DNA of 64,000 bases from Verrucomicrobiota bacterium (GTDB taxonomy: Bacteria > Verrucomicrobiota > Verrucomicrobiia > Limisphaerales > UBA1096), in NCBI GenBank assembly GCA_030749225.1, contig JASMKO010000028.1:11090-75089 (forward strand). Reading direction: 5' to 3'. A model generated the notes under the pieces. The model worked only from the letters and a program-made list of their open reading frames with translations, ran no database searches and was not told the DNA's origin. The translations under genes and the position numbers were made by a program. Shown one piece after another: positions 15 through 63,477 of this stretch (within the stretch, counting starts at the first letter, position 1; the number at the start of each line of letters is the position of its first letter).

Positions 15-536
15 CTAATCAAGCCAAATGTGAAGGGTGTCGGGACGGAGGTCGATGGAGAAATCGAGCCAGACAATGCTCATGTTATCGTCCCCGGTGT
101 TGTAGGTCATCACGTCGATTGTGTCGTCGGACAACTCCAGTTCGTGGTCGCTACCCAGCATGATGCCCAGGTCGGGCGGCCCGTCGTGCCGCGAAGGCGA
201 GGTCAGCAGCAGAAGAATGCAGGCCGCCCCGGCCAGCGGGGGTAACCAACTCAGCAGCCAGCCGGCGCGTGTCGAGGGCTTGGCCAAGCGCCTGGCCTGC
301 CGGTCTTCCCGTTCGATAGCCTCGGAAATCTGGCTCCAGTGAAAGTCCCCCGGCTCGGGCAGCGGGCGCGGCAACTCGGCGCCGTCCATCAGCCCGCGCG
401 CGGCGGTGAGCCGCGCGTGCAGTTCCCGCAACGCGTCATCTCCCTGAATGCGCGCACGCAATTCGTCCGCCTCGGTGCCAGCGAGTTCACCGTCCACCAA
501 AGCTTGTACCCTCAATTCTGTCTCGTTCTCGTTCAT
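15..536 (-). CDS. Putative membrane-anchored anti-sigma factor
   Basis: N-terminal 'VQALVDGEL' anti-sigma-like helix and one central TM segment; start overlaps the stop of the ECF sigma gene. Confidence 0.7.
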   Translation of the reverse strand: MNENETELRVQALVDGELAGTEADELRARIQGDDALRELHARLTAARGLMDGAELPRPLPEPGDFHWSQISEAIEREDRQARRLAKPSTRAGWLLSWLPPLAGAACILLLLTSPSRHDGPPDLGIMLGSDHELELSDDTIDVMTYNTGDDNMSIVWLDFSIDLRPDTLHIWLD

Positions 537-1141
537 TCAATTAATCCGTCCCGTTTCAGCGTTTCGTTCAGCAGGCTAGCCATACGTTTCCGGGCGTAAA
601 ACAGCCGTGACATGACAGTCCCAATGGAGGTGCCCATCCTATCGGCGATCTGCCGGTACTCGAGTTGCTCGAACTCGTACAGGACGATCACTGTGCGGTG
701 CTTGTCCGAAAGCTTAGCCAAGGCAGCGTCGATTCGTTCCCTCAACTCCTCACGGTCCAGTCCCTCGACCGGATCGACCATCTCCATCTCGAGCCGGTTC
801 TCGACCGGGCCGGTGGATTCCTCCATCGCCTCGATGGAGTCCATCCGCGCCCGCTTCTGCCGCCGCAACTCGTCGAGGCAGAGGTTGGTAACGATCCGGC
901 TCAGCCAGGTCGGAAAACTGGCATCGCCATGGAACTGGTCGAGGCGCTGCCACGCCTTGACCCACGCATTCTGGGAAAGATCCACCGCGAGATCCTCGTT
1001 GCGCATGATGCTGTAGGCGCGGACGTAGATGCGGTCGCGATGCCGTGAAACCAGCTCCTCGAATGCCACCATGTCGCCCGCTTTGGCCCACTCGACTAAT
1101 TGCGGATCTTCTGCCGAGGAATATACTGGTTCTGCCGGCAT
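533..1141 (-). CDS. ECF (sigma-70 family group 4) RNA polymerase sigma factor
   Basis: Region 2 'AFEELV..H...DLSQNAWVKAW...F.TWL.RI.TN.C.D' and region 4 'L.Y.QIA..MG.SIGTVMSRLFYAR'. Confidence 0.93.
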   Translation of the reverse strand: MPAEPVYSSAEDPQLVEWAKAGDMVAFEELVSRHRDRIYVRAYSIMRNEDLAVDLSQNAWVKAWQRLDQFHGDASFPTWLSRIVTNLCLDELRRQKRARMDSIEAMEESTGPVENRLEMEMVDPVEGLDREELRERIDAALAKLSDKHRTVIVLYEFEQLEYRQIADRMGTSIGTVMSRLFYARKRMASLLNETLKRDGLIE

Positions 1142-1180
1142 TTCAGGTGACGAACTCCGTCTCGGGCTTATTCAATGCAC

Positions 1181-1843
1181 CTACAATTTTCCCTTCGTGC
1201 TGGGCAGTTGACCGGCAATCCGGGGGTCGTGCTGGCAGGCCACGTCGGCCGCCCGGGCGAACGCCTTGAACAGCGCCTCGACAATGTGGTGCGGCTCGTC
1301 GCCGTACATCAGCTCGAGGTGCAGGTTGCACCGGGCATCGTTCGTGAACGCCTGGAAAAACTCCTTCGCCAGCCCAAATCGAAACACCGATGACGTGTCC
1401 TGCGACTTGTCGGCACTGGTGATGCCCTTCTGGTGGTGCTGGGCCAGGCCGCGCCAGACGAGGTGCGGCCGGTTGCTGAAATCGATTACGCACCGCGCGA
1501 GGCATTCGTCCATCGGCACATACGCCTCACCGGTGAACGGGTTACGGGGGTCAAAGCCGGCGCCGTAACGCCGCACACCCTTCTTGTCGCCCAACGCCTC
1601 AACGAATGCCTGGCCAAGCGCGATGCCGCAATCCTCGACCGTGTGGTGATGGTCCACCTCGACGTCGCCATTGCAAGCAAGGTTCAGGTCCACCGTCGCG
1701 TGCTTCGCGAACAACGTCAGCATGTGGTCGAAGAACGGGATGCCGGTGTCGATTTTCGATTTGCCTCTGCCGTCGATGTTGAGACTGAGCCGAATCTTTG
1801 TCTCCCCGGTGTCGCGTTTAATCTGTGCCTTTCGCGGCTGCAT
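1181..1843 (-). CDS. hisB: Imidazoleglycerol-phosphate dehydratase
   Basis: 'R.T.ET.I', 'TGIPFFDHML', 'DHHHTVED', 'PMDE', 'HHIVEALFKAF', C-terminal 'PSTKG'; start placed at ATG of MQPRK. Confidence 0.95.
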   Translation of the reverse strand: MQPRKAQIKRDTGETKIRLSLNIDGRGKSKIDTGIPFFDHMLTLFAKHATVDLNLACNGDVEVDHHHTVEDCGIALGQAFVEALGDKKGVRRYGAGFDPRNPFTGEAYVPMDECLARCVIDFSNRPHLVWRGLAQHHQKGITSADKSQDTSSVFRFGLAKEFFQAFTNDARCNLHLELMYGDEPHHIVEALFKAFARAADVACQHDPRIAGQLPSTKGKL

Positions 1844-1875
1844 GGTTGAGTTGTTCGCTTGGCCAAGCGGCGTCA

Positions 1876-5300: not shown

Positions 5301-5792
5301 TTATTTTTTGTCACTCTGCGCTTGGCTAAGCGCGGTATCGAGCAACGCCGTGACGTGCCCGGCGAGGTCCGGTTCTGCCGAGGCCCGAGGCCCAGCAACA
5401 TTGAGCACGACGATGTCGTTTGCCGAGATGAATCCGCGCAGCGCACCGGCCTGCATCAACAGATCCCCATCCGTTTTTGACAAGACCAAGTGCGGCTTGC
5501 CCAAGCGCTTGGCCAAGTCATCCGTGAGCCGGGTGCCACCAACCAGGCGCTTGGCCAAACTCACGATCAGCGTACCGTCGCTGTCACGAATATTCCACTC
5601 CGTGCGCTGTGCCGGGTTCGGTTCCAGGGTCTCCCGCAATGGATACCGGGCATCAATAACGCCGTCCTCCGCCCAGCGGCCAAGCGGACACCAGCCCCCA
5701 CACGCCACGCCGTTGGCCAACGCCCAGTCCAATGCCGCGCGGTCGGCCCCGGTCTGGCCGCCGGACACGATCTTTAGCAACCCACTCGGCAT
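5301..5792 (-). CDS. Putative molybdenum carrier protein (SLOG superfamily)
   Basis: 'KIVSGGQTGADRAALD', 'GGWCP.GR.AEDG', 'RTEWN.RDSDGT', 'LNVAGPR.S'. Confidence 0.85.
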   Translation of the reverse strand: MPSGLLKIVSGGQTGADRAALDWALANGVACGGWCPLGRWAEDGVIDARYPLRETLEPNPAQRTEWNIRDSDGTLIVSLAKRLVGGTRLTDDLAKRLGKPHLVLSKTDGDLLMQAGALRGFISANDIVVLNVAGPRASAEPDLAGHVTALLDTALSQAQSDKK

Positions 5793-7170: not shown

Positions 7171-10100
7171 TCACTCGGTGGAAAGTTCGTGCAGCCGACT
7201 AAGATCAGTGATTTGTTCGTTCCGCGCTCTTCCGGTTGACCAGGTGACCTCAAGACTGCGGATGCGCTTAGCCGCGCCGAGAAGTTGAGTGCGGCTGTTG
7301 CGCGAGTAACGGCCGGTGCCGCCACTGACCAAGCGAGCCGGTCCTTTTGAACCATCGTCGTACACCGGCCGTAGCACTGTCCCCTGATCCGCACGCACGC
7401 GAAGACCGGCTTGGCCGAGCGCGTTGAAATACAATTTCGGCCGACCCTTGCTTTGAGTAATCAACAGATCCGGCCGACCGTCGTTGTTCAGGTCCCCCAC
7501 GGCGCAGCCGCGCTGCTCGCCGTACACTTGGATGCCACTGCGGTGTCCGAAAACAGTCAAAAACCCCCCACGGCCGTCGCCGAGCATGAGCAGACCCTCG
7601 CCGGCGTCCATCCGATAATCCTCCACCCGCAAGGCAAAGTAGTTTTGGCTTAGGAACACATCTTCGTTTCCGTCACCGTCAAAGTCGGCCACAGCTGCGC
7701 CGCTGACCGGCGTGAGTTGTGCCTCGACCGGCAACGGTTTGGTTTCGAATCTACCGCCCCGATTGAGCAGCACGACCGACGCTAGGTGCGATGCCTTGAG
7801 CAACTTGACCCCGGCCAGTTGACCCGCAAACAACTGCTGCACCGTCGCAGCAGCGTAACGACGGTGTGTCGGGAATTGTTCGCGTAAAAACGGAAACAGT
7901 TGCTCGAGAGTCACAAGCCTGTGACGCGGCAGCAGCCGTTGCGCCGCCACATCGAATCGCGCCTCAAGTGCGTCGTAAAAACCGTCGCCGCCGATGTCGC
8001 CGTGCACGAGGTATGGCACTCGTTTTTCGCCGTGCTTGTAAGGGCTATTGAGTCCCCAGTTGCCGGCAAGCAAATCGAACCGACCATCGTTGTCGAAGTC
8101 GCCGACAGCGAGCGTCCGCCAAAGGCCCGGCTGCGAATCGAGTCCCCATGCCTTTGTCACGTCGGTGAATTTACCCCCGCTGTTCTTGAAAATCCGGATC
8201 GGCCCCCACTCGGTTGCCAGCGCCAGTTCCGGTAAAGGATCATCATCTAGATTCGCGAATACGGCAGCGCTCACGACTCCGATATTTTCCAAGGAGGTGG
8301 AATGCCCGGCATCCAGTTTTAGCCCGTCCGGGCCGCCGTGCAGCAGCCACGATGAAGCCGGCTGCGGAAACTTGCCGGGAATGCCGCATCCGGCGACAAA
8401 CACGTCGAGATCACCGTCGCCGTCCACATCCGCCACGGCGATCGAGCCGGCGTCGGAGTGGTTGTCGGACGGCAACGAGATGACGTCCGGCTTGGCCACA
8501 CCGGACCGGAATCGAAGCAACGACGGCGCAGTTGTCTCTGCAGAATCATGCGCGGACACCACAACAAGCAGTCCGCGTTCATCCCCGCCCAGGCCAAGCG
8601 CGTCACCGGCCAGCGGCTTGCCAAACGCCGGCTCCTTCAACTTGGCCAAGTGGCCATCGGCGGCAATGCGATAGCCGGCCAACTTTCCATCTGCGCCGTT
8701 GCCCAAAAACAATTCGTCGCGGCCGTCGCGATCCCAATCGACAAACGCCACGCCGGGGCCGGACTCTGTGAGGCGGCGGGTCAGCAACGGCTGGCGCAGG
8801 AAATCATCCGACGGCCGCTCTGTGTGCATGTGGGCCAGACGGTCGCTGGCGTCGATGAACAGCGGCTTCGGCTTGGCCAAGCGGGAAAGCCCGGGTTGTG
8901 TGTGTTTTTCGTGAATCTCGTAGGCATAGCCCGACTTGGCCCCGTTGACGATTGTTCGGCGGCCGCTTGGCCAATCGACCCCAATCGTGAGGCTTTCCGC
9001 CTGGCCGACGGCGAAGCTCCGCAACGGCTCGTCGCCAGCGAGGTAGCGGCCACCGGCGATCATTTCCTGCGACTGCGGATGCGGTCCGCCACGCACGGTG
9101 ATGCGAGCGCCGATGCCGCGGGTGTTGCCGCCCACGCCGCGCAGCGCCACCGACACGCGGGGCGCGGTGGCGTTGTTTCGGTAAAGCAGCGGCGGCGCAT
9201 TGAGGCAGTTGACCACAACGTCCTGGTCGCCGTCATTGTCGAGGTCGCAGAGAGAAATGCCATGCGACACGTTTTTCGATTCAAACCCCCAACTCCGCCC
9301 GACCTCGGTGAAGCGCAGACCGCCATCGTTCCGAAAAACCATGTTCGGGACGTTCAGCGGCGGGTAAAGAAAGACTTTTTTTCGTGCCTGCGAAAAAGGC
9401 AGATTACCAAGTCTAGCGGTCTTCTCCATGACGTCAAGATTCTGCGTATCAAATGCGTGACCGTTGGCAATCAGCATATCCTCAAGGCCGTCAAGATCGA
9501 CATCAAGAAATGTGACTCCCCATGTCCATTCGGAGGCAGCAACGCCGCTGTAGTTGGCAGTTTCCATGTAGCTATTGTCTCCGCGGTTCACGAACAGTGT
9601 GTTGCGGTGAATGATCGGACGGTCGATAAACTCGTCGATTGGCCTAGCAAACGGATTAGTGACACCCATCTGTATCATTTCCAAGAGGTGCGTCGGGCTT
9701 ATCATGTCAGCAACGAAAAAGTCGTCATGCCCGTCACGATTGATGTCAGCAAAATCGACGGCCATTGAAAAATAACTGCGATGCCGTATCGCCATTTCCT
9801 CCACGAGTTGGAACTTTCCATTACCCCGGTTGATCCACAGTCGGTCTGGAGTCTGGAAATCGTTGCAGATATAGATATCCGGCCGACCATCCTGATTTAT
9901 ATCGCGGATCATCGCCGACAGGCCAAGATCCCAAAACTCCTTTCGGATCGGTTGGCCGTTTTCGTCGAGCCAGTTGCCATCCATCCAGTCGACCTTGGTG
10001 AAGCTGCCTCTGCCATCATTGAGATAAAGGAAGTCCGGCTCCCCGATCTCTACCATTTCACCGTCCATGATCCGAATACGGTTGGCGTACCGGCCCGTGA

Positions 10101-10800
10101 CGACCGACTTGCCGTTGATGGTACGCACCGACACCGAACCGCCCGAGCGCAGGATCGATGTCTCACCGTAGTTGGCCACGTAAATGTCGAGGTCGCCGTC
10201 GCCGTCCAAGTCACCCATCGCAACCGATGTTGAACCGATCTTCAGCGCCTCTACCCCTGCTGCCTGGGTTCGGTTCGTAAATCGGCCGGTGCCGTCGTTG
10301 ACAAAAAGCGCATTCGGCCCACCGCAGGAAGTAACGAACAGGTCAAGATCGCCGTCACCGTCCAGGTCGCCGAACGCCGCACCGGTGCTCGACATCCCTG
10401 GCGCGCCGACCCCAGCCGCAGTAGTGATGTTTTTGAACCTCCAATCACCGAGATTTTTAAACAGCCCGTTCTCACCGTCGAGATTGCACAGGTAGAGGTC
10501 GCACAGACCGTCACCGTCCACATCCCCGGCGGCGACACCCGCGCCGTTGAGTAGGTTAGCGTTGACCATCCGTGCACGAGCCAGACGGTTGGTAAAGGCA
10601 ACGCCGGCCACCTCCGCCGAGAGCAGCGAAAAACCGGGCGCCTGACCGAGCGGCCGGTTCACGCTGGCCTCGCGGTAATGGCCACGATCGTGCCACTGCA
10701 GCGGCTTGGCCAAGGCGGCACGTTTGGCCAAACCTAGGAGGCAAGCGCACAACAGAAGGTCAAAAGCAATGCCGGAAACAGTGCGCTTAATCATCATCAA
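7171..10800 (-). CDS. Large secreted FG-GAP repeat / ASPIC-UnbV (CRTAC1-like) protein
   Basis: Many 'D.DGDG.LDL' FG-GAP repeats, central 'N..GIGA.ITV' ASPIC/UnbV segment, N-terminal hydrophobic signal. Confidence 0.85.
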   Translation of the reverse strand: MMMIKRTVSGIAFDLLLCACLLGLAKRAALAKPLQWHDRGHYREASVNRPLGQAPGFSLLSAEVAGVAFTNRLARARMVNANLLNGAGVAAGDVDGDGLCDLYLCNLDGENGLFKNLGDWRFKNITTAAGVGAPGMSSTGAAFGDLDGDGDLDLFVTSCGGPNALFVNDGTGRFTNRTQAAGVEALKIGSTSVAMGDLDGDGDLDIYVANYGETSILRSGGSVSVRTINGKSVVTGRYANRIRIMDGEMVEIGEPDFLYLNDGRGSFTKVDWMDGNWLDENGQPIRKEFWDLGLSAMIRDINQDGRPDIYICNDFQTPDRLWINRGNGKFQLVEEMAIRHRSYFSMAVDFADINRDGHDDFFVADMISPTHLLEMIQMGVTNPFARPIDEFIDRPIIHRNTLFVNRGDNSYMETANYSGVAASEWTWGVTFLDVDLDGLEDMLIANGHAFDTQNLDVMEKTARLGNLPFSQARKKVFLYPPLNVPNMVFRNDGGLRFTEVGRSWGFESKNVSHGISLCDLDNDGDQDVVVNCLNAPPLLYRNNATAPRVSVALRGVGGNTRGIGARITVRGGPHPQSQEMIAGGRYLAGDEPLRSFAVGQAESLTIGVDWPSGRRTIVNGAKSGYAYEIHEKHTQPGLSRLAKPKPLFIDASDRLAHMHTERPSDDFLRQPLLTRRLTESGPGVAFVDWDRDGRDELFLGNGADGKLAGYRIAADGHLAKLKEPAFGKPLAGDALGLGGDERGLLVVVSAHDSAETTAPSLLRFRSGVAKPDVISLPSDNHSDAGSIAVADVDGDGDLDVFVAGCGIPGKFPQPASSWLLHGGPDGLKLDAGHSTSLENIGVVSAAVFANLDDDPLPELALATEWGPIRIFKNSGGKFTDVTKAWGLDSQPGLWRTLAVGDFDNDGRFDLLAGNWGLNSPYKHGEKRVPYLVHGDIGGDGFYDALEARFDVAAQRLLPRHRLVTLEQLFPFLREQFPTHRRYAAATVQQLFAGQLAGVKLLKASHLASVVLLNRGGRFETKPLPVEAQLTPVSGAAVADFDGDGNEDVFLSQNYFALRVEDYRMDAGEGLLMLGDGRGGFLTVFGHRSGIQVYGEQRGCAVGDLNNDGRPDLLITQSKGRPKLYFNALGQAGLRVRADQGTVLRPVYDDGSKGPARLVSGGTGRYSRNSRTQLLGAAKRIRSLEVTWSTGRARNEQITDLSRLHELSTE

Positions 10801-12275: not shown

Positions 12276-14714
12276 ATGAAAGAACAGGCAAAAGTCGTCA
12301 TCATCGGCGGTGGCATCACCGGGTGCAGCATCGCGTGGCATCTGGCCAGACGCGGCTGGACCGATGTGCTGCTCCTCGAGAAAGGAGAGTTGACCAGCGG
12401 CACCACATTTCACTCAGTCGGCCTGGTCAGCCAATTCCGCACCTCGCCCGCTCTGATGCGGCTGATGAATTACAGCATTGGACTTTACGACCAATTCAGG
12501 GATGAGGGCGCCAACAATATCGGCTGGCACAAGGTCGGCAGCCTGCGACTGGCCTCCAGCCCCAACCGACTTAAGGCGCTGCAGCGGCAGGTCAGCCGGG
12601 CGCGCGGGCTCGGGCTCGATGTCGGCACCATCACTGCCGCTGAGGCGCTTGATATCGCACCGTTTCTTTCGCCCGAAGGCATCGAAGGTGCGGTGCACAT
12701 TCCCGACGACGGCTGGCTGGATCCCAACGGCATCACGGTCGAGTTCGCCAAGCGTGCTCGTGAACTCGGAGTGGCTATCCAGACCAACTGCCGCGTTATC
12801 GACATCGGTCGCAACGGCTCGGGCGCAGTCACCCACGTCGAGACAGACCAAGGCACTGTGCAGACCGAGATTATCATCAATGCAGCGGGGCAATGGGCAC
12901 CCCGTCTCTCGGCAATGGTGGGCGCAATCACCCCGATGGTGCCGCTCATGCACCAGTACCTAACCACGCGTCATATCCCCGGCCAGGAGTTGCCGGAGCA
13001 AACACCAGTCGTGCGCGATCCCGACAACCTTTTTTACCTGCGCGAGGAGGTCGGAGGATTCCTCGTCGGCGGATTCGAACTGGAGCCCAAGGCATGGGCC
13101 GCGGATGGTGTCCCGTGGGAGTTTACCCAGCAACTCCTACCCGAGGACTGGGAACTGTTCGAGCCGGTGATGGAGGGCGCGCTGCGGCGCATCCCGCTGA
13201 TCGAGCGCGCCGAGGTCATCAAGCTGATCAACGGCCCCGACGCCATGACGCCAGACGGCCATTACTGCCTCGGTCCGGTGCCTCGCGTGCCCGGGTTCTA
13301 TGTCGCCGCCGGAATGTCGCTCAACGGCATCGCCGGGGCCGGTGGGGTGGGCAAGGTGATGGCCGAGTGGATCATCGACGGCGAGCCATCGCTCGACCTG
13401 CACGAGATGAATGTTCGCCGCTTTGGCGCGCATTTTGGCGACACGGACTTTGTCACCGAAAAGGCGCGCGAGGTGTACCACTACTACTACCATCAACACT
13501 ACCCGACCGACGAAACCCTGTGGGCCCGCAATCGCCGCAAAAGCCCTCTATACGACCGGCTTGCCGGCCTTGGCGCAGAGTTTGGTGAGAAAAACGGCTG
13601 GGAACGTGTTAACTTTTTTCGGCCTGGCGAGCCTGCCCGCCAGGCGGCGGATGACCAGCACAACTGGGGCTGGAGCCGCGCGCCGTACCTCGACCTGATC
13701 CGCGAGGAGTGCCTAGCCGCCCGCGAACGCGTCGCGATGTTCGACATGACCTCATTCGGCAAATTCGAGGTCAGCGGCCCCGACGCGCTCGGCCTGCTGC
13801 AGCGAGTTGCCTGCAACAACATCGATCGACCCGTCGGCTCGCTCGTCTACACGCAGTTCCTCAATGCGCATGGCGGCATCGAGAGCGACCTCACCGTCTG
13901 CCGACTGGCCGACGACCGGTTCCGTGTCATCACCGGCACATCATTCCTGCCCAACGACCTAGAGTGGGTTCGTGCGCACACACCAGCGGATGGGTCGGTC
14001 GAGTTACGAGATGTCAGCGACGAATTGACCTGCATTGGCCTGTGGGGACCAATCGCGCGTCATGTGCTTGCCCAAGCGACCGGAGACGATATCAGCAACG
14101 ACGCCTTCCCCTACCTGACGGCACGACAGATCACCGTGACCGGCAAACCAGCCTGGGCACAGCGCGTCAGCTACATCGGCGAACTGGGCTGGGAATTGTA
14201 CCTCGCCAACGACGACGCCGGCGCTGTTTGGGATACGCTGCTCGAGCTTGGCCAATCGCACGGCATCCGCACCGCCGGCTACAGGGCACTGGACTCGCTG
14301 CGACTCGAGAAAGGCTACGTATACTGGAGCACTGACGTAACGCCGGAGGATAACCTGCTCGAAGCAGGGCTGGGCTTCTGCGCCGACATGGCCAAGGACG
14401 ACTTCATTGGCCGCGATGCCTTGGTCAAGCGCAAAGAGGAAGGGCTGCGGACACGTCTGCGAACCGTCGTACTCGAGGGAAATGTATTCCCCGCCTACGG
14501 TGCGGAGTCGGTTTGGTACAACGGCGAAATCATCTCACGCCTGCGAAGCGCAGGCCACGCTCATACCATTGACCGGTCGATTGCCTACTGTTATCTACCG
14601 TTGGACTTGGCCAAGCCGGGAACGGAAGTGGAGATCGAACTATTCGGCGAACGCGTCCCGGCCAAGGTCTCCCTCCCCATCCACGACCACAAGGGCGAAC
14701 GCCTCAAGACCTGA
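12276..14714 (+). CDS. GcvT-family FAD-dependent oxidoreductase (sarcosine/dimethylglycine dehydrogenase-like)
   Basis: 'VVIIGGG..G.S.A.HLA', 'LTSGTT.H..G', 'NGP...TPDG', 'GWER', 'DMTSFGK', 'RVSY.GELGWE', 'LDSLRLEKGY'. Confidence 0.9.
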   Translation: MKEQAKVVIIGGGITGCSIAWHLARRGWTDVLLLEKGELTSGTTFHSVGLVSQFRTSPALMRLMNYSIGLYDQFRDEGANNIGWHKVGSLRLASSPNRLKALQRQVSRARGLGLDVGTITAAEALDIAPFLSPEGIEGAVHIPDDGWLDPNGITVEFAKRARELGVAIQTNCRVIDIGRNGSGAVTHVETDQGTVQTEIIINAAGQWAPRLSAMVGAITPMVPLMHQYLTTRHIPGQELPEQTPVVRDPDNLFYLREEVGGFLVGGFELEPKAWAADGVPWEFTQQLLPEDWELFEPVMEGALRRIPLIERAEVIKLINGPDAMTPDGHYCLGPVPRVPGFYVAAGMSLNGIAGAGGVGKVMAEWIIDGEPSLDLHEMNVRRFGAHFGDTDFVTEKAREVYHYYYHQHYPTDETLWARNRRKSPLYDRLAGLGAEFGEKNGWERVNFFRPGEPARQAADDQHNWGWSRAPYLDLIREECLAARERVAMFDMTSFGKFEVSGPDALGLLQRVACNNIDRPVGSLVYTQFLNAHGGIESDLTVCRLADDRFRVITGTSFLPNDLEWVRAHTPADGSVELRDVSDELTCIGLWGPIARHVLAQATGDDISNDAFPYLTARQITVTGKPAWAQRVSYIGELGWELYLANDDAGAVWDTLLELGQSHGIRTAGYRALDSLRLEKGYVYWSTDVTPEDNLLEAGLGFCADMAKDDFIGRDALVKRKEEGLRTRLRTVVLEGNVFPAYGAESVWYNGEIISRLRSAGHAHTIDRSIAYCYLPLDLAKPGTEVEIELFGERVPAKVSLPIHDHKGERLKT

Positions 14715-15668: not shown

Positions 15669-15804
15669 ATCATCAAAAAACTTTGGCTGGCGGTTGCCGA
15701 CTCGCGGCGCGGCGATTGTACCCCGCGGCCGACCGTTCGCAAGCCGCGCTTGGCCAAGCGCGATACGGAAGGCACTATCTGCGGCTACGAATCTTTGTTA
15801 AATC

Positions 15805-19695: not shown

Positions 19696-19727
19696 GGCCG
19701 GGACGTTACCCGTGCTCTTGGACAAGA

Positions 19728-21740: not shown

Positions 21741-21755
21741 GTCACGGATTCATTG

Positions 21756-23321: not shown

Positions 23322-23327
23322 CTCCTG

Positions 23328-23355: not shown

Positions 23356-23394
23356 AACCCATGAATCCACCACCCGGCGGCGCTTGGCAAAGCA

Positions 23395-36799: not shown

Positions 36800-37051
36800 A
36801 TGCACGAGATGCACGAATTTGCCCCGACCGACGATGTCGTCGAAAAGATCGCAAGGCTGGCGTCGGAAACCACCGGCCAGCCGGCCGATGCCGCGTCCAT
36901 CACGCGAGCCCAGGATCGTCGCACCCGCAACCGAACCGGCGTATTCGATGCCGTGGCGTATCAGCGTGCCAAGGCGGCCAAGCACTTGGCCAAGCGGCCG
37001 CTACCCGACGACAGCCCGGCGTGGTTCGATCCCCAACTCCCCGTGAGTTGA
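36800..37051 (+). CDS. Small hypothetical protein
   Basis: ORF fills the gap between two genes and its stop abuts the sulfatase stop; no recognised family. Confidence 0.4.
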   Translation: MHEMHEFAPTDDVVEKIARLASETTGQPADAASITRAQDRRTRNRTGVFDAVAYQRAKAAKHLAKRPLPDDSPAWFDPQLPVS

Positions 37052-38554: not shown

Positions 38555-38607
38555 GAAAGCCCAGCAGTCTACGGCTAGTGAGCCGCTTGGCCAAGCCACC
38601 TGTAGTC

Positions 38608-43823: not shown

Positions 43824-43844
43824 TCCCTTGGCCAAGCGCCTAGC

Positions 43845-50633: not shown

Positions 50634-50709
50634 GCTCGCACAAAGCTAACCTGCTTGGCCAAGCGTCGCGAGTCGGCAAATCTCGCGTGACGCCCCACGG
50701 TTCCCTACG

Positions 50710-51612: not shown

Positions 51613-51652
51613 TTTTGTGCCACTTGGCCAAGCATGGCAGCATCCCAACCGA

Positions 51653-52195: not shown

Positions 52196-54520
52196 GTGAT
52201 TCACCTGATTCGAATTCCATCGTGCGTGGCTCTTGTGGCCGTCGTTTCCCTTTCCGCGCTCGGCCAAGCGGACGATATCAAGTTAACCGGCAAACCGTAC
52301 ATCGACATGAACTACGGGCCGTACATGAGCGCCTCGATCGAGGTCGGCCCGGGCAACATCGCCTACAAGGGCATTGCAATCCGGCTCGATGACGGGCCGG
52401 GCGGCGTGTCGAAGGGTAAACGCTTCGTGGTGTTCGAGACGGACACCCTGCGCATGGCCGCCGCCTGGAGTGGGGACAAATTCATCGACTGGCGCAGCAT
52501 TGTTTACGACGGCAGCCACGGCACGCATCCGAAGATCGTCGGCGAGCGGCTCTTCACCAACCCGGTCGCCCCCGGCTGGTCCAAGCCGGGCACGGACAGT
52601 TTTAGCGATCCCCGCCTGCGTGGGCTCGATAAGAAACCTTACGGCCCGCTGCCCCGCGACTGGGGCCAATGGCAAGGGCTTGGCCTCCACGGCAATCGGG
52701 TGATCCTGCACTACAAGGTTGCCGGTCGCCACGTGCTGGAGTCGCCCTCGTACAGGGAGAGTGACGGAGTCGGGGCCGTGGTCCGCACGATGAATTTTGA
52801 GGAACGCGACGAAGACATCGTGCTGCAGGTCGTCAAGGGCGAGGGCAAGGCCAAAGTCAAGACCATCGACGGAAAGTCAGTGGCCGAATTTGAAAACGGC
52901 CTCGCCGTGGTACTCTTGGTCGAGGCCGGCGGAGCCAAGTTCGTCGCGACCGATGATGGGCATCTGCGCCTGTCCATTCCCTCTGGAGGACTGCTTGCAC
53001 TCAACCTTGCCATCGCCAACACCGACGGCAAGGCGGAGTCCTTGGCCAAGCTGGTGGGAACGCTTGGCCAAGCGGAGAATCTTCTCGAGACATTCCAGCA
53101 GGGCAGCGGACGGCGCTGGACTGAAAGTATCAAGACCAAGCCCCGTCGTTTGGGGAAACCGGGGGCGTTTGTCACCGAGATCATTACTCCGCCGGACAAG
53201 AATCCTTATCACTCGTGGATGCGCCTAGGCGGCTTCGACTTTTTCGAGGGTGGCGACCGCGCGGCCGTCTGCACGTGGATGGGTGATGTATGGATCGTCG
53301 AGGGCATCAATAGCGACCCACAGGAGTTTACCTGGACCCGCATTGCAACCGGTATGTTCCAACCGCTTGGCCTGAAGATTGTCGAGGGGAAAATCTACGT
53401 CACCTGCCGCGACCAGCTCACAGAGCTGATCGATGCCAACGGCGATGGTGAGACCGACTACTACAAGGCGTTCAACCACGACGCACAGGTGACCGAACAT
53501 TTCCACGAGTTTGCGATGGATTTGCAGACCGATGCCTACGGGAATTTTTACTACACCAAGGCCGCCCGCCACGCGAAGACCGCGCTCGTCCCGCAACACG
53601 GCACTCTCATCAAGGTGACGCCGGACGGAGAATCCAGCGAGATAATCGCCAGCGGCTTCCGCGCACCCAACGGCGTCTGCGTCAATCCGGATGGCACTTT
53701 CTACGTGAGTGACCAGGAGGGCCATTGGACGCCGAAGAACGAAATCAACCTCATTGAGAAGGGCAAGTTTTACGGCAACCTCATGGGCTACCACAAGGGA
53801 CTCACCGAAGCCGACATCACCTCGCCCGTCGTCTGGATGCACAATAATTTTGACCGCTCCCCTGCCGAGCAACTCTGGGTAAACAGCGACAATTGGGGCG
53901 GCCTTGGCGGCCAACTCCTCAACCTCTCTTACGGTACCGGCTACGTCTATGTGATCATGGAGGAAAAAGTGAATGGCCGCGCCCAAGGCGGCGTGGTGCG
54001 TATTCCCGATTTTGATTTCCCGACCGGCGTTATGCGAGGGCGCTTCCACCCTAGTGACGGACAACTCTACGCCTGCGGCCTATTTGGCTGGGCCGGCAAC
54101 AAAACCCGGCCGGGTGGGTTCTACCGCCTCAAGCACACTGGCAAACCAGTCCACGTGCCGGTTGCCATCAACGCAATCAAGGAGGGCGTGTCGATCACCT
54201 TCACCCATGAACTTGATCCCGAGACTGCAGCCGATCCCGAGAGCTACCTCGTCAAACGCTGGAGCTACAAGCGCACCCGCAACTACGGCTCACGCGACTA
54301 CAAGGCAGACGGCAGCCAGGGACAGGACGACGCTGAAGTGACCGGCGTTAAAATCTCGGATGACAAAAAATCCGTTCTGCTTCAGATCGCTGCCATGAAG
54401 CCTGTCATGCAGATGCAGATCGAGTACAAGATCGACACCGCAGACGGGGAATACCTGTCCCAACGAATCCAAAACACCATCCACGCCATCGGCAACAACG
54501 GCCCCTTTAGCCAGCAGTAA
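52196..54520 (+). CDS. Secreted PVC-type beta-propeller protein (DUF6797-like, glucose/sorbosone-dehydrogenase-like)
   Basis: Signal peptide; 'GDVW.V', 'A.G.FQPLG', 'D.NGDGE.D.Y', 'G.R.PNG', 'DQEG.W.P', 'YGS' motifs. Confidence 0.6.
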
Positions 54521-54541
54521 ACGAAGCGCTTGGCCAAGCGC

Positions 54542-55236: not shown

Positions 55237-56538
55237 ATGGCGAGCCCCAACCAGATCACCCTTTGCAGTTTCTGCGGGAAATCCCACTCAGAGGTCCGCA
55301 AGCTGATCGCCGGTCCGGGCGTGTACATCTGTGACAATTGCATCCTCGTCTGTAAGAACGTCCTCGACAAGGAACTGCAGGCTGAGGAGAAGAAAAAGGC
55401 GATCAAGCTCAACGTCCCGAAGCCGAAGCAAATCAAGGCGGCGCTAGACGAGCACTGCATCGGGCAGGAAGCCGCCAAGAAGGCCTTGTCCGTCGCGGTG
55501 CACAACCATTACAAGCGCATCCAGTCTGGCCTCGCGGTCAAGCCTCAGGGAGACGACAAGATCATCCGTAGCGAGACCAGCGGCGGCGAGATCGAGATCG
55601 AGAAGAGCAACATCCTGCTGCTGGGCCCAACCGGCTCCGGCAAGACGCTGCTCGCCCGCACGCTGGCCCGCATGCTGGACGTGCCGTTTGCGATCGCCGA
55701 CGCCACCACGCTGACCGAGGCCGGCTACGTTGGGGACGACGTCGAAAACATCGTCCTACGACTCCTGCAGGCGGCCGACTACGACGTGAAGCGCGCGCAG
55801 ATCGGCATCATTTACGTCGACGAAATCGACAAGATCACGCGCCGCACGGAGAACGTCTCGATCACCCGCGACGTCTCCGGCGAAGGTGTGCAGCAGGGAC
55901 TTCTGAAGATTCTCGAGGGCACTGTCTGCAACGTCCCGCCGCAGGGCGGCCGCAAGCATCCCCAGCAGGAATACATCAAGCTCGACACCACCAACGTGCT
56001 TTTCATTTGCGGCGGCGCGTTCGTCGACCTCGACAACATCATCCAGCGCCGCATCGGCAAACACGTGCTTGGCTTCTCCGGCAAGGACGATTCCCAGCGC
56101 AACGACAAACCCAGCGCGGAAGATCGGGACATTCTCAAGCACGTCGAGCCGGAAGACCTACTCAGTTACGGTTTTATCCCGGAATTCATCGGACGGTTGC
56201 CGGTACACACATCGCTTGAGGAACTCGACGAGGAACAACTTGTCCGCGTCATGACCGAGCCGAGAAACGCCCTCACAAAACAGTTTGCAAAGCTGTTTGA
56301 GATGGACGGCGTGAAGCTCAAGTTCACCGACGACGCCCTGACCGAGTTGGCCAAAGCCGCCATCAAGCGCGGCACCGGCGCGCGCGGCCTCCGCAGTCTG
56401 ATGGAGAAACTGATGCTCGACACGATGTACGAGATTCCTGACTCGACAGACGTCGTCTCGGTCAAGGTCACCGACAAGGTCGTGCTTGGCCAAGCGGAGC
56501 CGGTGTTCCAACGTCGGCAAAAGAAGGCCGCCGCCTGA
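55237..56538 (+). CDS. clpX: ATP-dependent Clp protease ATP-binding subunit
   Basis: CSFC...ICDNC zinc finger, GPTGSGKT, 'DEIDK', '[10 protein letters not shown]', 'TGARGLR'. Confidence 0.97.
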
Positions 56539-57738: not shown

Positions 57739-57758
57739 CGCACTTGGCCAAGCACAGC

Positions 57759-59393: not shown

Positions 59394-61502
59394 TTGCGCG
59401 CCGCCACCCCACAACTCCCCCGCCGCTTGGCCAAACTAGGCCTGGCCTGCCTGCTCGCGGGCGGTGGCTTGGCCAACGGCGAAATCCAGTTCGACATCTT
59501 CATGGGATTCGCCGGCAAGGCGCGTCAGGGCGACTGGTTCCCGGTGACGTTCGAGATCCACAACGACGGCCCGACCTTCGACGGCCAAGTCGAGCTGCGG
59601 TCGCGCTTTGGCAGCAACCCGGTCTACCGCTACGACGTCGAACTGGCCACAAATACCCGCAAGCGTTTCACACTCCCGGTTTTTGGAGACGTCAACTCCA
59701 ACTGGACGGCCCGGCTGCGTAACGGCCGCAAGACGGTAGCCAAACATGATGAACTGAAACTCGACAGCATGGATGCACAAACCGTCCTTGTCGGTACGTT
59801 GAGCGGCCAGCAGGCCGGCGGCCCGGTGCTGCCCAAGACGCGCTTCAAGCGCCGATGGGAGAATGAACGTTTTGCCCCGGTCGTGGCGCAGCTGCAGGCG
59901 GACATCTTTCCCGACGATCCCATCGCGCTGGGCGGCCTGCGCACGCTCTACCTCAACTCCGCACGCGCCATCCACCTGCGCCCCGAGCAGGCCGCCGCCC
60001 TCACGACGTGGGTGCTCGGCGGCGGGCACCTGATGCTGGCAGTCGACCAACCCGGGGATGTCACCGGCACGCCCTGGCTGACCGGCTTGGTTCGCGGCCA
60101 GTTCGGCCCTGTGCAAAACAGTGCCGTTGGCCAAGCGCTGGGCCAATGGCTCGACGAGGCGGGCTACTCCAACGTCGGCCTTCCGGATGACGCGTTCGCC
60201 GCCGGGCAACTCGCCGCCGCCGCGGTGCGCCTGGCCAACGGCAAGGCGCTGATCGTGCACGATGACCGGCCGGTTGCCGCCAAGGCCAATCGCGGCCTTG
60301 GCCAAGTGAGCGTGCTCGGCTTCAACCCGGAGCGCGAGCCGTTCAAGTCGTGGAGGAACCGCGCCTGGTTCTGGGCGCGCTTGGCCAAGGTTTCCCCCGC
60401 TTGGTACGAGACGGAAGCGCCAGCCCAGCAGTACGGCTGGTTGCACATCGACGGCGTCTACGGCGCGATGCTCGACAGCCGACAGGTCAGCAAGCTCCCG
60501 GTCATTTGGCTGCTGCTGCTGCTCGGCGCCTACCTTGTCATCATCGGGCCGGTGGATCGCATCTGGCTCAAGCGCATCAACAAACAGATGCTCACTTGGC
60601 TGACCTTCCCGGCATATGTCGCGATTTTTTCGCTGCTGATTTATTTCATCGGCTACAAGCTGCGCGCCGGCCAACTCGAGTTGAACGAACTGCATATCGT
60701 CGATGTGCTGCCAGGGCAGCAGGAAGTTCTGCGCGGCCGTAGTTACGCGTCGATTTACTCACCGATCAACGACGACTACCGGCTTGGCGGCAGCTTCGCG
60801 CAAAGTGCCATTCGCTCCGAATATGGCGGTGCATCCCGCGGTAATGTAGGCGACTCGTTACGGATACAGCACAACATAAGAAGGCTCGAGGCTCTCGCCG
60901 AAGTGCCGATCTGGACGAGCCGCCTTCTCTGCTCCGAATGGATCGCGACAGACAACGACGGGGTCACGGCAACCCTCACCAAAAACGGATCAACCGGCTA
61001 CGAGCTGGCCCTCAGGAATGGACTCGATAAAGCAATCACTGGTGCAGCATTACTGTCGGATGGCAGAATCACCGAGTTGGAATTTCAATCGCCGCCGGGC
61101 AGCACGCGCACGCTCCGCATCCAAACCGCCGCGTCTCCTCATGCCGAAAGTGAATTTGAAAGAATCAGTGGCGGTGGAAGGTTCGAGGGTGCCGTGAAAA
61201 CCCGAAACCAGGCATTCGGCGACACCGAAAGTGGCCGGATCGATCCTATTTTGATGAACATCATCACTTGTTCCTTCCCGGCACTCCTCAGAACTGGTGA
61301 AAATCAAGAAGGCCCCCTCGTTGCCAACTTCAGCAGTTCGGGCGGACTCGACCTCTCCTCGCACGCTGAACGCGGCGGAGTCGTTCTTTTTTTGCTGGCG
61401 GAGGATCATGCGCCGATTCCTTCCACGGGGCTTTTTGAAACCAAACTTGGCCGAGCACGCACCCTGTACCGAATTCCACTCGAGACCACCAAAACCGATT
61501 AA
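59394..61502 (+). CDS. Large membrane-anchored hypothetical protein with class-I GATase-like domain, associated with an ABC ATPase
   Basis: 'G.W.PV', 'AL..WV..GG.L', 'GLG.V', TM segment 'Y..IIGPVD...LK......W.T.P'. Confidence 0.65.
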   Translation: MRAATPQLPRRLAKLGLACLLAGGGLANGEIQFDIFMGFAGKARQGDWFPVTFEIHNDGPTFDGQVELRSRFGSNPVYRYDVELATNTRKRFTLPVFGDVNSNWTARLRNGRKTVAKHDELKLDSMDAQTVLVGTLSGQQAGGPVLPKTRFKRRWENERFAPVVAQLQADIFPDDPIALGGLRTLYLNSARAIHLRPEQAAALTTWVLGGGHLMLAVDQPGDVTGTPWLTGLVRGQFGPVQNSAVGQALGQWLDEAGYSNVGLPDDAFAAGQLAAAAVRLANGKALIVHDDRPVAAKANRGLGQVSVLGFNPEREPFKSWRNRAWFWARLAKVSPAWYETEAPAQQYGWLHIDGVYGAMLDSRQVSKLPVIWLLLLLGAYLVIIGPVDRIWLKRINKQMLTWLTFPAYVAIFSLLIYFIGYKLRAGQLELNELHIVDVLPGQQEVLRGRSYASIYSPINDDYRLGGSFAQSAIRSEYGGASRGNVGDSLRIQHNIRRLEALAEVPIWTSRLLCSEWIATDNDGVTATLTKNGSTGYELALRNGLDKAITGAALLSDGRITELEFQSPPGSTRTLRIQTAASPHAESEFERISGGGRFEGAVKTRNQAFGDTESGRIDPILMNIITCSFPALLRTGENQEGPLVANFSSSGGLDLSSHAERGGVVLFLLAEDHAPIPSTGLFETKLGRARTLYRIPLETTKTD

Positions 61503-61532
61503 CGCTTTCCCAAGCGCAATCAAAACGAAACC

Positions 61533-62510
61533 ATGTCAAATGAATCGACGATCCTTCCGCCGCCCGTCTCCAATGCCGCTGTCGAGACGTTCGGCCTCAC
61601 GCGCCATTACGGCACGCTGACCGCGCTCAACCGGCTCGACCTCACCGTGAACCGGGGCGACCTCTTTGGCTTCATTGGCTCGAACGGCGCTGGCAAGACC
61701 ACCACGCTTCGCATTCTCTCGACCTTCCTCTCGCCGTCAACCGGCACCGCACGCGTCCTGGGCCACGATGTCGTTCGCGAGGCGAATCAGGTTCGGCGCA
61801 TCCTCGGCTATATGCCTGACTTCTTCGGCGTCTACAAGGACATGGAGGTCACGGAGTATCTCGACTTTTTTGCCGCGTGCTACCGCATCGGTGCAACCAA
61901 GCGCGAGCAGACCATCAACGACGTGCTCGAGCTGGTCGGCCTCAGCGAAAAAAAAGGCGCGCTCATCGGCGCGCTCAGCCGCGGCATGCAGCAACGCATC
62001 GGCCTCGCCCGCGTGCTCGTGCACGACCCGGAGATCCTACTGCTCGACGAGCCGGCCAGCGGGCTCGATCCGCGCGCGCGCATCGAAATGATGGCCATCC
62101 TGCAGGAGTTGCAGCGGCTCGGCAAAACGATCCTCATCTCTTCTCACATTCTCAGCGAACTGCAGTCGCTCTGCAACCGCGTCGCCATCATCGAGAAAGG
62201 CAGCCTGATTTACACCGGACCGGTGCAGGGGGTGCAGGATCAGTTCGCACAAAAACCGGGCTTCCGGCTTAGCGTGGCCGACAACCCGCAGCGCGCGATT
62301 GAGCTGCTGCGCGAACGCCCCGAGATCGCCGAGGCGGAGCCCGAGGAGGAGAGCGGACGAATCCGCGTCGTATTGGCCGACGGCCTGGCCAACGGCGGCG
62401 TGATCGCGGAGATCATCGTCAATAGCGGGCTCCAGCTTACTGGGCTGGAGGAGGATGAGATGGATTTGGAGGACGTATTCCTGCAGGTCACACGCGGCGA
62501 AACGCAGTAG
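61533..62510 (+). CDS. ABC transporter ATP-binding protein (ABC-2/DrrA type)
   Basis: GSNGAGKTT, 'GYMPDFFGVY', LSRGM, 'LDEPASGLDP', 'SSHIL'. Confidence 0.93.
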   Translation: MSNESTILPPPVSNAAVETFGLTRHYGTLTALNRLDLTVNRGDLFGFIGSNGAGKTTTLRILSTFLSPSTGTARVLGHDVVREANQVRRILGYMPDFFGVYKDMEVTEYLDFFAACYRIGATKREQTINDVLELVGLSEKKGALIGALSRGMQQRIGLARVLVHDPEILLLDEPASGLDPRARIEMMAILQELQRLGKTILISSHILSELQSLCNRVAIIEKGSLIYTGPVQGVQDQFAQKPGFRLSVADNPQRAIELLRERPEIAEAEPEEESGRIRVVLADGLANGGVIAEIIVNSGLQLTGLEEDEMDLEDVFLQVTRGETQ

Positions 62511-62522
62511 CCGCCCCGCTGA

Positions 62523-63380
62523 TCAGTCGCCGGTAAACCGGTTCAACCGCGAACGGACGTCTTGCCTAAACCGCTCAATGCACTCATCAATATATCCGGC
62601 AATGTTCATCGATGGATCATCCACAAGCGGCTTCAAGTCCATCGCGTAACTGGCCATCTTTGAGTGATCAACCGCATGCGAATCGTAAAACGTCGCGTTG
62701 CCCCGCAGCCGCCCTTCCAGCGCTAGGTCGTAGCGTTTGCCACCACTGATCTGTGAATCGAAAATGCTAATGAGTGCGCGAACCAAATTGGGTCGGTTAT
62801 TCAATTCGAGTAGTACCTTTTCACTATCGAGCAACCAGTTGAGATCGCGCCAGACTTCTACACCGTAAATCTTCGCGGGCTGAACGTCCTTCGGCAGTTC
62901 TCGCAACGCTTGGATCAGCGGCACGACCACCGCGACATGCGTATCGTGTTTATCGGCGAGGTTGTGCGTGTAAATCACCTGCGGCCGGGCCGCCGCGAGG
63001 ATCGTTCGCAAGTCGGCGGTGTAGTCGCTGTTGCCCGGCTGTTTCACCGCCGAGCTGGGGTAGTCAAGCTGCGCCATGAACGCGTACTCGCCGACAACAG
63101 ACGCCTTGCGCTGTTCTTCGGCGCGCACAACCTGCATCTGTTCGTCGGTATAGCCAGCATACTCGTTGGCTCGCGAACTGCCGGCACCATTGGTTACCGT
63201 CACGCCGCCAAACCACGCCTGCGGCTGCTTGTAGCAGGCGAGGATGCCGTGCAGCGCCATCACCTCAAGGTCGTCCTGATGCGCGCCGACGCCGAGGTGG
63301 GTCGTGCGGCCAAGCGCCTGGTCCGGTTCATTGTCGTCGGGGATGAACAGGTCGGCGCTCGGGTTGGCAAACTGGATCAT
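62523..63380 (-). CDS. PIG-L/LmbE-family deacetylase
   Basis: 'AHQDDLE', 'T.G', 'R..EQ..A', 'TH...DKHDTH' metal-binding motifs. Confidence 0.85.
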   Translation of the reverse strand: MIQFANPSADLFIPDDNEPDQALGRTTHLGVGAHQDDLEVMALHGILACYKQPQAWFGGVTVTNGAGSSRANEYAGYTDEQMQVVRAEEQRKASVVGEYAFMAQLDYPSSAVKQPGNSDYTADLRTILAAARPQVIYTHNLADKHDTHVAVVVPLIQALRELPKDVQPAKIYGVEVWRDLNWLLDSEKVLLELNNRPNLVRALISIFDSQISGGKRYDLALEGRLRGNATFYDSHAVDHSKMASYAMDLKPLVDDPSMNIAGYIDECIERFRQDVRSRLNRFTGD

Positions 63381-63477
63381 AATCGCAATGGGGAACGCGG
63401 CCGGGAAACGCCGCTTGGCCAAGTCAATCCGCTTGGCCAAGTTTCGTCAAGCGCTTGGCCGCAGGGTACAAAATCAT

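Follow-up and report, generated by a model that had tools for sequence, protein, structure and literature searches.

A highly iterated palindrome in a single-genus marine Verrucomicrobiales family as a candidate transformation-linked sequence

Introduction

To our knowledge, uptake sequences are established in two proteobacterial families only, as the DNA uptake sequences (DUS) of Neisseriaceae and the uptake signal sequences (USS) of Pasteurellaceae. The highly iterated palindrome (HIP) of cyanobacteria, HIP1, has been debated for thirty years. Here we describe a palindromic 10-mer, CTTGGCCAAG, that is dispersed through 64,000 nucleotides of a Verrucomicrobiota genome (G000:C28:11090-75089, hereafter the window; G000 is the genome that the window comes from) and through the genomes of its relatives. 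On balance, we lean towards reading this palindrome as a transformation-linked signal of the DUS/USS kind that would be kept by molecular drive. This reading draws on the density of the motif, its imprint on the proteome, its restriction to one family, its use at gene ends, its scarcity in islands, its excess conservation only where competence genes are kept, and its decay.

Several properties of the described systems are relevant here. The accessible text of one source tabulates 1,471-1,965 copies of uptake sequences per genome and gives them as enriched at the 3' ends of genes (PMC1852404), and that of another describes their imprint on the proteome (PMC2817400). HIP1 has recently been proposed, in the accessible portions of two reports, to be an uptake sequence or to be linked to natural transformation (PMC13756078; bioRxiv 10.1101/2024.09.10.611283). 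Finally, NTS/dRS3 hairpin repeats, which are read by Ssn GIY-YIG single-stranded DNA nucleases, modulate transformation (PMC11893778).

Results

Abundance of the palindrome

An exact-match count found exactly 43 copies of CTTGGCCAAG in the window, all at the start coordinates that an initial annotation, made from the sequence by eye, had listed for its approximately 43 copies. One hundred dinucleotide-preserving shuffles of the window gave a mean of 0.13 copies and a maximum of 1. The assembly of G000 (3,083,908 bases in 120 contigs, 58.6% GC, estimated completeness 80%) contains 1,522 copies, one per 2.0 kb, which makes CTTGGCCAAG the commonest 10-mer of the genome. A zero-order model predicts 3.6 copies and an order-3 Markov model 20.5 (models of higher order are inflated by the motif itself), and the runner-up palindromic 10-mers reach 179 and 46 copies. 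The first of these runners-up is CAAGCGCTTG, the second commonest palindromic 10-mer of G000.

Synonymous-codon shuffling within genes left 71.1 ± 6.2 copies (30 shuffles, maximum 86) and codon-order shuffling left 9.9 ± 2.9, versus 1,248 observed in coding sequences (CDS). An artefact of codon or dipeptide usage is therefore ruled out. The motif lies on 119 of the 120 contigs, the sole contig without a copy being 5 kb long, and recurs in metagenome-assembled genomes (MAGs) from many independent records, which rules out a local element or an assembly artefact. The initial annotation had named beforehand two findings that would speak against the motif, namely loss of enrichment under such null models and confinement to one contig or assembly; the enrichment persists under Markov and codon-preserving models alike, and the motif extends over the genome and to other genomes of the genus.

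Structure of the motif

The flank logo of the G000 copies is symmetric: 68% of them have G at position -1 and 60% have C at -2, position -3 is S, and flank information ends at ±3. Palindromic extensions are frequent: the 12-mer GCTTGGCCAAGC accounts for 739 copies (49%), the 14-mer CGCTTGGCCAAGCG for 381 (25%) and the 16-mer for 86 (6%), so that the initial impression of flanks lengthening the palindrome is borne out by logo and counts together. The motif unit is (G)CGCTTGGCCAAGCG(C), with CTTGGCCAAG as its core. Since nothing is conserved beyond ±3, the unit is not part of a longer repeat. Indeed, a larger mobile repeat of the repetitive extragenic palindrome or miniature inverted-repeat transposable element type (REP/MITE; longer than about 20 bp, intergenic and spread by insertion) can be ruled out because the flanks end at ±3, 82% of copies lie in CDS, and orthologous variants are point changes.

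A halo of one-mismatch copies, also perceived initially in the window, amounts to 1,783 copies in G000. Tolerance is greatest at the outer positions of the core and smallest at positions 3-5, transitions are prominent, and one variant, CCTGGCCAAG, reaches about 155 copies per strand. Half-sites also pair tail-to-tail in G000, where GGCCAAGCGCTTGGCC occurs in 63 copies versus about 1.5 expected, and 13 pairs of full motifs lie exactly 12 bp apart, an arrangement that would encode (RLAK)n or (ALGQ)n. When folded as single-stranded DNA, the 16-mer is predicted to reach -5.5 kcal/mol and the 14-mer -3.3 kcal/mol, and the 10-mer does not fold. We judge a hairpin unlikely to be the selected feature, given that the core does not fold and that the positions that would form the loop vary least.

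Distribution across lineages

The motif is present in all 26 genomes of one GTDB genus, which constitutes the whole family, at 41 to 3,286 copies each. Motif-rich members of the genus carry 630-1,844 copies of the 12-mer, and 293 other genomes of the order, representing 85 other families, carry 0-13 (control counts 0-9). The motif is confined to this single-genus marine Verrucomicrobiales family of 26 species among the 86 families sampled in the order, in agreement with the lineage-specific, HIP-like nature first ascribed to it.

A scan for two motif copies within 2-32 nt of each other in about 185,000 species genomes returned at least 116 stretches. Among the matches listed, 73 of 80 were titled as Verrucomicrobia or Verrucomicrobiales MAGs from marine surveys, and the strays were Bacteroidales tandem repeats, single pairs and one probably mis-binned contig. 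The Bacteroidales MAG contigs (L039, L086 and L068) hold 42-bp tandem repeats whose unit happens to contain the 10-mer and which are unrelated to the dispersed motif. The remaining contig (L070; 3.7 kb, titled Proteobacteria bacterium UBA2996) has four dispersed copies with typical CG...CG flanks; it seems to stem from this Verrucomicrobia group and to have been placed in the wrong MAG. Carriage by phages was also considered and rejected, as viral contigs gave 14 stretches, each with an isolated pair only and none with HIP-like density. A literature search, with most subscription journals outside its reach, found no description of the motif or of uptake sequences in Verrucomicrobia; the literature found on highly iterated palindromes concerned cyanobacteria only, and among the matches listed the 10-mer appears in primers and constructs. 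Papers that mention both uptake sequences and Verrucomicrobia were judged not to bear on the motif, and those that treat the 8-mer as overrepresented do not deal with microbial genomes.

Association with natural-transformation genes

Genomes of the genus were grouped by their transformation genes first and the motif was examined afterwards. ComEC (PF03772) and DprA (PF02481) were each detected in 14 of the 26 genomes, ComM (TIGR00368) in 14, of which 13 above the curated cut-off, and a ComF-like protein (TIGR00201) in 15, at E-values of 1e-14 to 1e-35 that fall below the curated cut-off. Both comEC and dprA are intact in G000. The ComM match in G012 (G012:C90:9221-9799) is a C-terminal fragment with two in-frame stops and may be a pseudogene that marks an early stage of competence loss. 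None of the four genes was detected in seven genomes (G001, G004, G006, G008, G032, G033 and G011) that are 67-89% complete, and the other 19 genomes gave 58 of 76 possible detections, about their completeness.

The same seven genomes occupy the bottom seven ranks for motif density (0.012-0.29 per kb versus 0.37-0.92 in the other 19) and also for the ratio of perfect to one-mismatch copies (0.15-0.52 versus 0.55-2.42). Values are lowest in the low-GC genomes G001, G004, G006, G008 and G032 (0.012-0.023 per kb, ratio 0.15-0.20), followed by G033 (0.13 per kb, ratio 0.38) and G011 (0.29 per kb, ratio 0.52).

Conserved neighbours flank the missing genes. In G000, comEC sits between a VanZ-like gene and ffh, two neighbours that abut in G011, G008 and G004, and in G033 the slot is taken by an unrelated open reading frame (ORF). 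Similarly, dprA sits in G000 between a gene for a 341-amino acid protein and nuoN, which lie 142-552 bp apart in G033, G011 and G008, and comM is cleanly gone from between its neighbours in G033 and G008. All remaining genes of these 12-18-kb neighbourhoods are kept. Consequently, the absences of comEC, dprA and comM are real deletions and not assembly gaps. In passing, we note that a 474-amino acid neighbour of comM (L235:3029-4453, in G016) is a member of a greatly expanded family; five genomes each show 26-47 matches at E <= 1e-40.

A tree of EF-G from 14 genomes (G004 and G006 are not in it; the midpoint root serves for drawing only) places G001, G008 and G032 in one clade (support 94/97), with the motif-rich G012 as its sister. 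G011 pairs with G002 (support 98/95), which bears competence genes, and G033 stands apart. These placements imply losses in at least three lineages. As a second option, the initial annotation had proposed a DNA-uptake or recombination protein as keeper of the motif, a proposal that gains comparative support here, motif density and site conservation following comEC, dprA, comM and comF. Co-variation with type IV pili was considered and set aside: PilM_2 goes the wrong way, and neither HHH_3/ComEA nor the secretin discriminates. Secretins and a cluster resembling type II secretion systems or type IV pili are present in G000.

Site conservation and decay

Syntenic regions of 12 relatives were aligned to the window, and motif sites were compared with phase-matched flanking 10-mers. 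In the ten relatives that keep competence genes, motif sites are conserved in 70 of 104 cases (67%) versus 112 of 583 (19%) for flanks; these pooled counts lack independence, as related genomes share sites that are counted more than once. Among single relatives, G016 conserves 19/21 sites versus 44/120 flanks and G014 14/18 versus 15/99; the corresponding figures are 7/27 versus 17/155 in G011, and 0/16 versus 6/85 in G033. Orthologous positions that are not conserved hold variants with 1-3 mismatches, that is, point changes.

The origin of a site can be followed in an EF-G paralog, where a synonymous change from CTG to TTG makes the motif site in eight close relatives. The comparison of orthologs that had been suggested initially, for synonymous changes creating or conserving sites, thus yields both such a change and an excess conservation of sites. 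This EF-G gene (window 41679-43823) is 35% identical to a second EF-G of canonical length. It occurs in 15 other genomes of the genus at 79-96% identity and, used as query, gave no match in the low-GC clade.

Relics of the array are visible in the low-GC clade. In G001, 28 sites that carry no more than one mismatch could be aligned, and 7 of them fall exactly on perfect sites of G000. It follows that the array predates the split and that the low-GC clade carries relics of it; the alignments indicate that this motif-poor clade is decaying. No other iterated word was seen in a 400-kb sample of G001 (40.5% GC), so we reject a different HIP in that motif-poor species within the sample. GC content is about 41-45% in the low clade, about 50% in G033 and 57-62% in the rest of the genus (loci L123-L142, L160, L162, L163, L217, L218 and L226 for G001, G004, G008 and G032; L205, L215 and L224 for G033).

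Reading frames and the proteome

Gene calls made in this analysis are crude and comprise 2,282 genes that span 90% of G000. With these calls, 1,247 copies of the genome lie in CDS (0.45 per kb), 245 are intergenic (0.79 per kb) and 30 straddle boundaries. Coding copies are read as L-A-K (xxC-TTG-GCC-AAG) in 706 cases, L-G-Q (CTT-GGC-CAA) in 458, and W-P-S/R (TGG-CCA) in 83. The frame independence claimed initially therefore stands in that all three frames are used but was overstated, since the L-A-K frame accounts for 57% of coding copies.

These three tripeptides, L-A-K, W-P-S and L-G-Q, are the most over-represented in the proteome, each at 3.8-4.0 times expectation, and the next most enriched, G-Q-A and A-K-R, correspond to the same DNA word one codon further on. 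Furthermore, TTGGCCAAG spells 936 of 1,679 L-A-K tripeptides, even though TTG makes up only 19% of Leu codons. The DNA word dictates protein sequence and not the reverse, as follows from the codon shuffles, the use of all frames, the bias towards TTGGCCAAG in L-A-K and the enriched tripeptides; the early view that the motif is held at the level of DNA and not of protein is upheld on the same grounds.

Spacing, islands and gene ends

Copies are placed essentially at random along G000. Gaps have a coefficient of variation of 1.05, compared with 1.04 when copies are placed randomly; those shorter than 200 bp are slightly over-represented, and even or periodic spacing is not seen. Likewise, 1,446 genes lack a copy versus 1,402 expected under a Poisson distribution, and concentration in particular genes is not seen. 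Motif density climbs with local GC. The longest motif-free stretches are mostly of low GC (0.47-0.50) and island-like, and long stretches of this kind are probably recently acquired islands. Motif-free segments of lower GC (0.47-0.56) include window positions 18356-27040, inside which a strong AT skew of 0.267 was measured at 20001-24000, as well as C13:62681-81637, C60:82543-98083 and C57:2717-17802 of G000.

A further feature, new to this analysis, is a concentration of copies behind stop codons. A total of 119 copies start 0-11 nt past a stop codon, and none lie in the last 12 nt of genes. When intergenic sequence only is considered, density is 5.8-6.7 per kb at 0-11 nt from the stop, 1.95 at 12-23 nt and 0.4-1.0 beyond. 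Stop-proximal copies favour the extended forms, the 14-mer (45% versus 25% overall) and the 16-mer, and a T run follows in only 9 of the 119.

DNA methyltransferases and Vsr

The motif core contains TGGCCA and GGCC, which are classic type II recognition sites. C5 methylases (PF00145) were found in 2 of the 26 genomes of the genus, G000 not being one of them, and N4/N6 methylases (PF01555) in one, the motif-poor G008. Additional models were searched in three motif-rich genomes (G000, G010 and G036) and two motif-poor ones (G008 and G004), and control genomes gave matches in each of these methylase and Vsr searches. PF02384 gave no match in the three motif-rich genomes and weak matches only in the two motif-poor ones, Dam (PF02086) was found in G008 only among the five, and Vsr in none of the five. 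A crude screen of the G000 proteins for catalytic motifs yielded 17 candidates; none of the 10 that were run through Pfam is a DNA methylase, and one candidate without a family looks like a GNAT acetyltransferase. These negatives apply to MAGs that are 59-93% complete and to the models used, which a novel methylase family could escape.

The motif-poor G008 (loci L002-L006 and L175) carries C5, N4/N6 and Dam-type methyltransferases, and the sole methyltransferase match among motif-rich genomes is one C5 enzyme in G010. Methylases found mostly in a motif-poor genome are the opposite of what a methylase-driven HIP would predict. The repair ratchet coupled to a GGCC/TGGCCA methyltransferase, which had been the leading proposal of the initial annotation, is consequently not supported, as neither methylases nor Vsr were found in the motif-rich genomes searched, bar the C5 enzyme of G010.

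Copies in the window

The 43 copies of the window are listed in Table 1. A single gene contains copies in all three frames (CDS 37052-38677 on the minus strand, copies 37124, 38345, 38467 and 38586).

Table 1. Exact copies of the palindrome in the window, with their location in the crude gene calls
Coordinates	Location	Frame	Remarks
279..288	CDS	L-A-K	
1858..1867	intergenic by crude gene calls		
5508..5517	intergenic		
8641..8650	FG-GAP/ASPIC gene	L-A-K	
8872..8881	FG-GAP/ASPIC gene	L-A-K	same gene as copy 8641
10705..10714	FG-GAP/ASPIC gene	L-A-K	same gene as copy 8641
14606..14615	DAO/GCV_T gene	L-A-K	
15749..15758	intergenic		full 16-mer palindrome
16066..16075	CDS	L-G-Q	
18346..18355	CDS	L-A-K	followed by 8.7-kb motif-free stretch
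27041..27050	intergenic by crude gene calls		
29005..29014	CDS	L-A-K	
30530..30539	CDS	L-A-K	
30767..30776	CDS	L-A-K	
31337..31346	CDS	W-P-S	example given in the initial annotation
34023..34032	CDS	L-A-K	
35022..35031	CDS	L-A-K	conserved in G016 and G011
36655..36664	intergenic or straddling a gene boundary		
36985..36994	CDS	L-A-K	
37124..37133	CDS 37052-38677(-)	L-A-K	
38345..38354	CDS 37052-38677(-)	L-A-K	
38467..38476	CDS 37052-38677(-)	L-G-Q	
38586..38595	CDS 37052-38677(-)	W-P-S	
40758..40767	CDS	L-G-Q	identical in 10/12 aligned relatives
42125..42134	EF-G paralog	F-G-L-A-K-V	CCTGGCCAAG or L-S-K in distant relatives
43827..43836	stop-proximal class		starts 4 nt past stop codon of EF-G paralog
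43983..43992	CDS	L-A-K	
45415..45424	CDS	L-G-Q	
46809..46818	CotH gene	W-P-S	
49109..49118	CDS	L-A-K	
49291..49300	CDS	L-G-Q	
50504..50513	CDS	L-G-Q	
50654..50663	intergenic		
51623..51632	intergenic, just 3' of ORF 50710-51612		stop-proximal example; conserved in G016, G010, G014 and G011
53041..53050	CDS	L-A-K	
53063..53072	same CDS as copy 53041	L-G-Q	22 nt past copy 53041
54529..54538	stop-proximal class		full 16-mer; 8 nt past stop at 54520
56485..56494	CDS	L-G-Q	
57743..57752	stop-proximal class		4 nt past stop at 57738
60297..60306	CDS	L-G-Q	
60380..60389	CDS	L-A-K	
63414..63423	CDS	L-A-K	
63432..63441	straddles gene start		18 nt past copy 63414

Discussion

If the palindrome is a transformation-linked signal, DNA fragments that bear it would be favoured at some step of natural transformation, be it binding or uptake by a putative receptor or a subsequent stage requiring ComEC, DprA, ComM or ComF. 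Because such fragments would be favoured, point mutations that create the motif would be over-transmitted by recombination, in a molecular drive to which selection may add. Copies would then accumulate wherever the sequence tolerates them, whatever the reading frame and despite the amino-acid changes entailed, and foremost in the first dozen bases past stop codons. Once transformation genes are lost, the drive would stop and copies would decay into one-mismatch variants. From the genomes compared we infer a bias of transformation or uptake towards the motif, together with a protein that would read it. As for the fuller account, a DNA-uptake or transformation signal outside Proteobacteria that consists of one methylation-free palindrome, doubles as a post-stop hairpin mark and decays along with GC after deletion of comEC, dprA and comM, we consider the chances to be even.

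A number of observations weigh against this interpretation. The proposed uptake role comes from genome comparison, and the organisms are represented by MAGs only. The correlation goes back to no more than three or four independent losses, and the two clearest cases, the low-GC clade and G033, also lost GC, a drop that would by itself erode a motif of 60% GC. G011 differs only modestly from its sister G002 (0.29 versus 0.38 per kb, ratio 0.52 versus 0.55). G012 is motif-rich (0.70 per kb) with only a comM fragment, in an assembly that is 67% complete and in which the comEC and dprA neighbourhoods are unassembled. The ComF matches lie below the NCBIfam curated cut-off. The type IV pilus family PilM_2 was detected in G011, G033 and G008, three genomes without competence genes, and not in the motif-rich G000 and G016, and no ComEA-type HHH_3 match was found in G000. 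Furthermore, comEC, dprA and comM are widespread in bacteria without an uptake sequence, and the DUS and USS that we know of are not palindromes.

Among the alternatives, the one that survives best is an array of binding sites for a putative dimeric DNA-binding protein, for example one of nucleoid organisation or chromosome maintenance, that would be kept by selection and be unrelated to transformation. Palindromic information spread over 14-16 bp would suit a dimeric reader, as would inner positions that tolerate change least, sites conserved well above their flanks and the tail-to-tail half-sites of GGCCAAGCGCTTGGCC. We nevertheless hold this explanation to be unlikely. Spacing is essentially random and Poisson-like over genes, no candidate protein is named, and a further, unseen gene would have to be missing from the very three lineages that are without comEC, dprA and comM. 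Co-loss with the competence genes would, on this view, be a coincidence or belong to a wider shift in lifestyle.

Biased mutation or short-patch repair that turns near-matches into the motif, functionless and free of any methyltransferase, deserves rather less credence. It would account for the large one-mismatch halo with its prominent transitions and abundant CCTGGCCAAG, for the origin of copies by point substitution and for the climb of density with local GC. However, no Vsr was found in the five genomes searched for it and there is no methylase to direct repair, the tenfold peak 0-11 nt past stop codons is not predicted, and neither is the link to comEC, dprA, comM and comF, except where the bias operates on heteroduplex DNA formed in transformation. 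In that event, biased repair would merge with the transformation-linked signal.

The peak at gene ends itself suggests a role at the level of RNA, in which a post-stop hairpin would end transcription with no U tract, stabilise the 3' end of the mRNA or signal the termination of translation, and genic copies would be spill-over. The 119 copies at 0-11 nt (5.8-6.7 versus 0.4-0.8 per kb further away), their absence from the last 12 nt of genes, their enrichment in the 14-mer and the predicted folding of the 16-mer speak for such a role. As the origin of the array we find it quite improbable, because genes contain 82% of the copies (1,247 of 1,522), which use all three frames, no fold is predicted for the 10-mer core, the GGCC that would form the loop is least variable, T runs are rare, and the link to transformation genes is left unexplained. 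Moreover, known uptake sequences show the same secondary use as terminators, according to the accessible text of PMC1852404.

The weakest alternative, a HIP1-type palindrome kept by an orphan GGCC/TGGCCA methyltransferase with mismatch or very-short-patch repair, has in its favour the recognition sites within the core and the cognate methylases that HIP1 is described to have in the accessible part of PMC4390886, and is very improbable here given that PF00145 occurs in 2/26 genomes and PF01555 in 1/26, that PF02384, PF02086 and Vsr occur in 0/3 motif-rich genomes, that methylases are mostly those of the motif-poor G008, and that the 10 G000 candidates scanned are not DNA methylases.

The reading as a transformation-linked signal has implications of some breadth. 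Sister lineages that deleted transformation genes, with the motif seen decaying, constitute a built-in comparative experiment. If the reading is true, natural transformation would be active in abundant uncultured marine Verrucomicrobia, and the lineages without the genes would be natural knock-outs showing molecular drive based on transformation. The motif would provide a sequence tag with which to follow gene flow and spot mis-binned contigs in ocean metagenomes, and the 14-mer on donor DNA would offer a handle for the genetic tractability of these bacteria. The parallel fall of GC would hint that recombination helps to keep GC high. Finally, HIP-type palindromes in general would gain support as transformation signals, which bears on the question of HIP1 function.

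Comparison with known systems

The palindrome resembles the DUS of Neisseriaceae (core GCCGTCTGAA) and the USS of Pasteurellaceae (core AAGTGCGGT) in having a core of 9-12 bp with weaker flanks and in a density of about one copy per 1-2 kb, its 1,522 copies standing beside the 1,471-1,965 given in the accessible text of PMC1852404. Other shared traits are a genic as well as intergenic location, an imprint on peptides, restriction to one family, enrichment at 3' ends, scarcity in islands and a tie to the transformation machinery. Unlike the oriented, asymmetric DUS and USS, it is a perfect palindrome, so that one copy serves either orientation and makes a hairpin by itself. It also differs in belonging to another phylum, Verrucomicrobiota, and to uncultured marine MAGs, in a receptor that is putative here, in that PilM_2 was not found in two motif-rich genomes, and in stop-proximal copies without T tracts.

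With HIP1 (GCGATCGC) it has in common that it is a hyper-abundant short palindrome with palindromic extensions, dispersed in coding DNA, conserved at orthologous sites above background, and lost or replaced in some lineages. Sequence and phylum are different, and spacing is random here and quasi-periodic in HIP1. In contrast to HIP1, with its methyltransferases DmtA and DmtC and an effect on transformation that is reportedly methylation-dependent in the accessible part of the literature, no cognate methyltransferases were found in the genomes searched here. NTS/dRS3 is likewise an abundant palindromic repeat, and NTS modulates transformation; however, NTS units are about 30 bp long with a loop and an orientation and are 2% genic (PMC11893778), whereas the present unit is 10-16 bp long and 82% genic. 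The palindrome thus adds an independent case of an iterated motif, in a new phylum and without methyltransferases, and on the whole we incline to see what is new here as an uptake-type iterated sequence that is palindromic, methylase-free and placed in that phylum.

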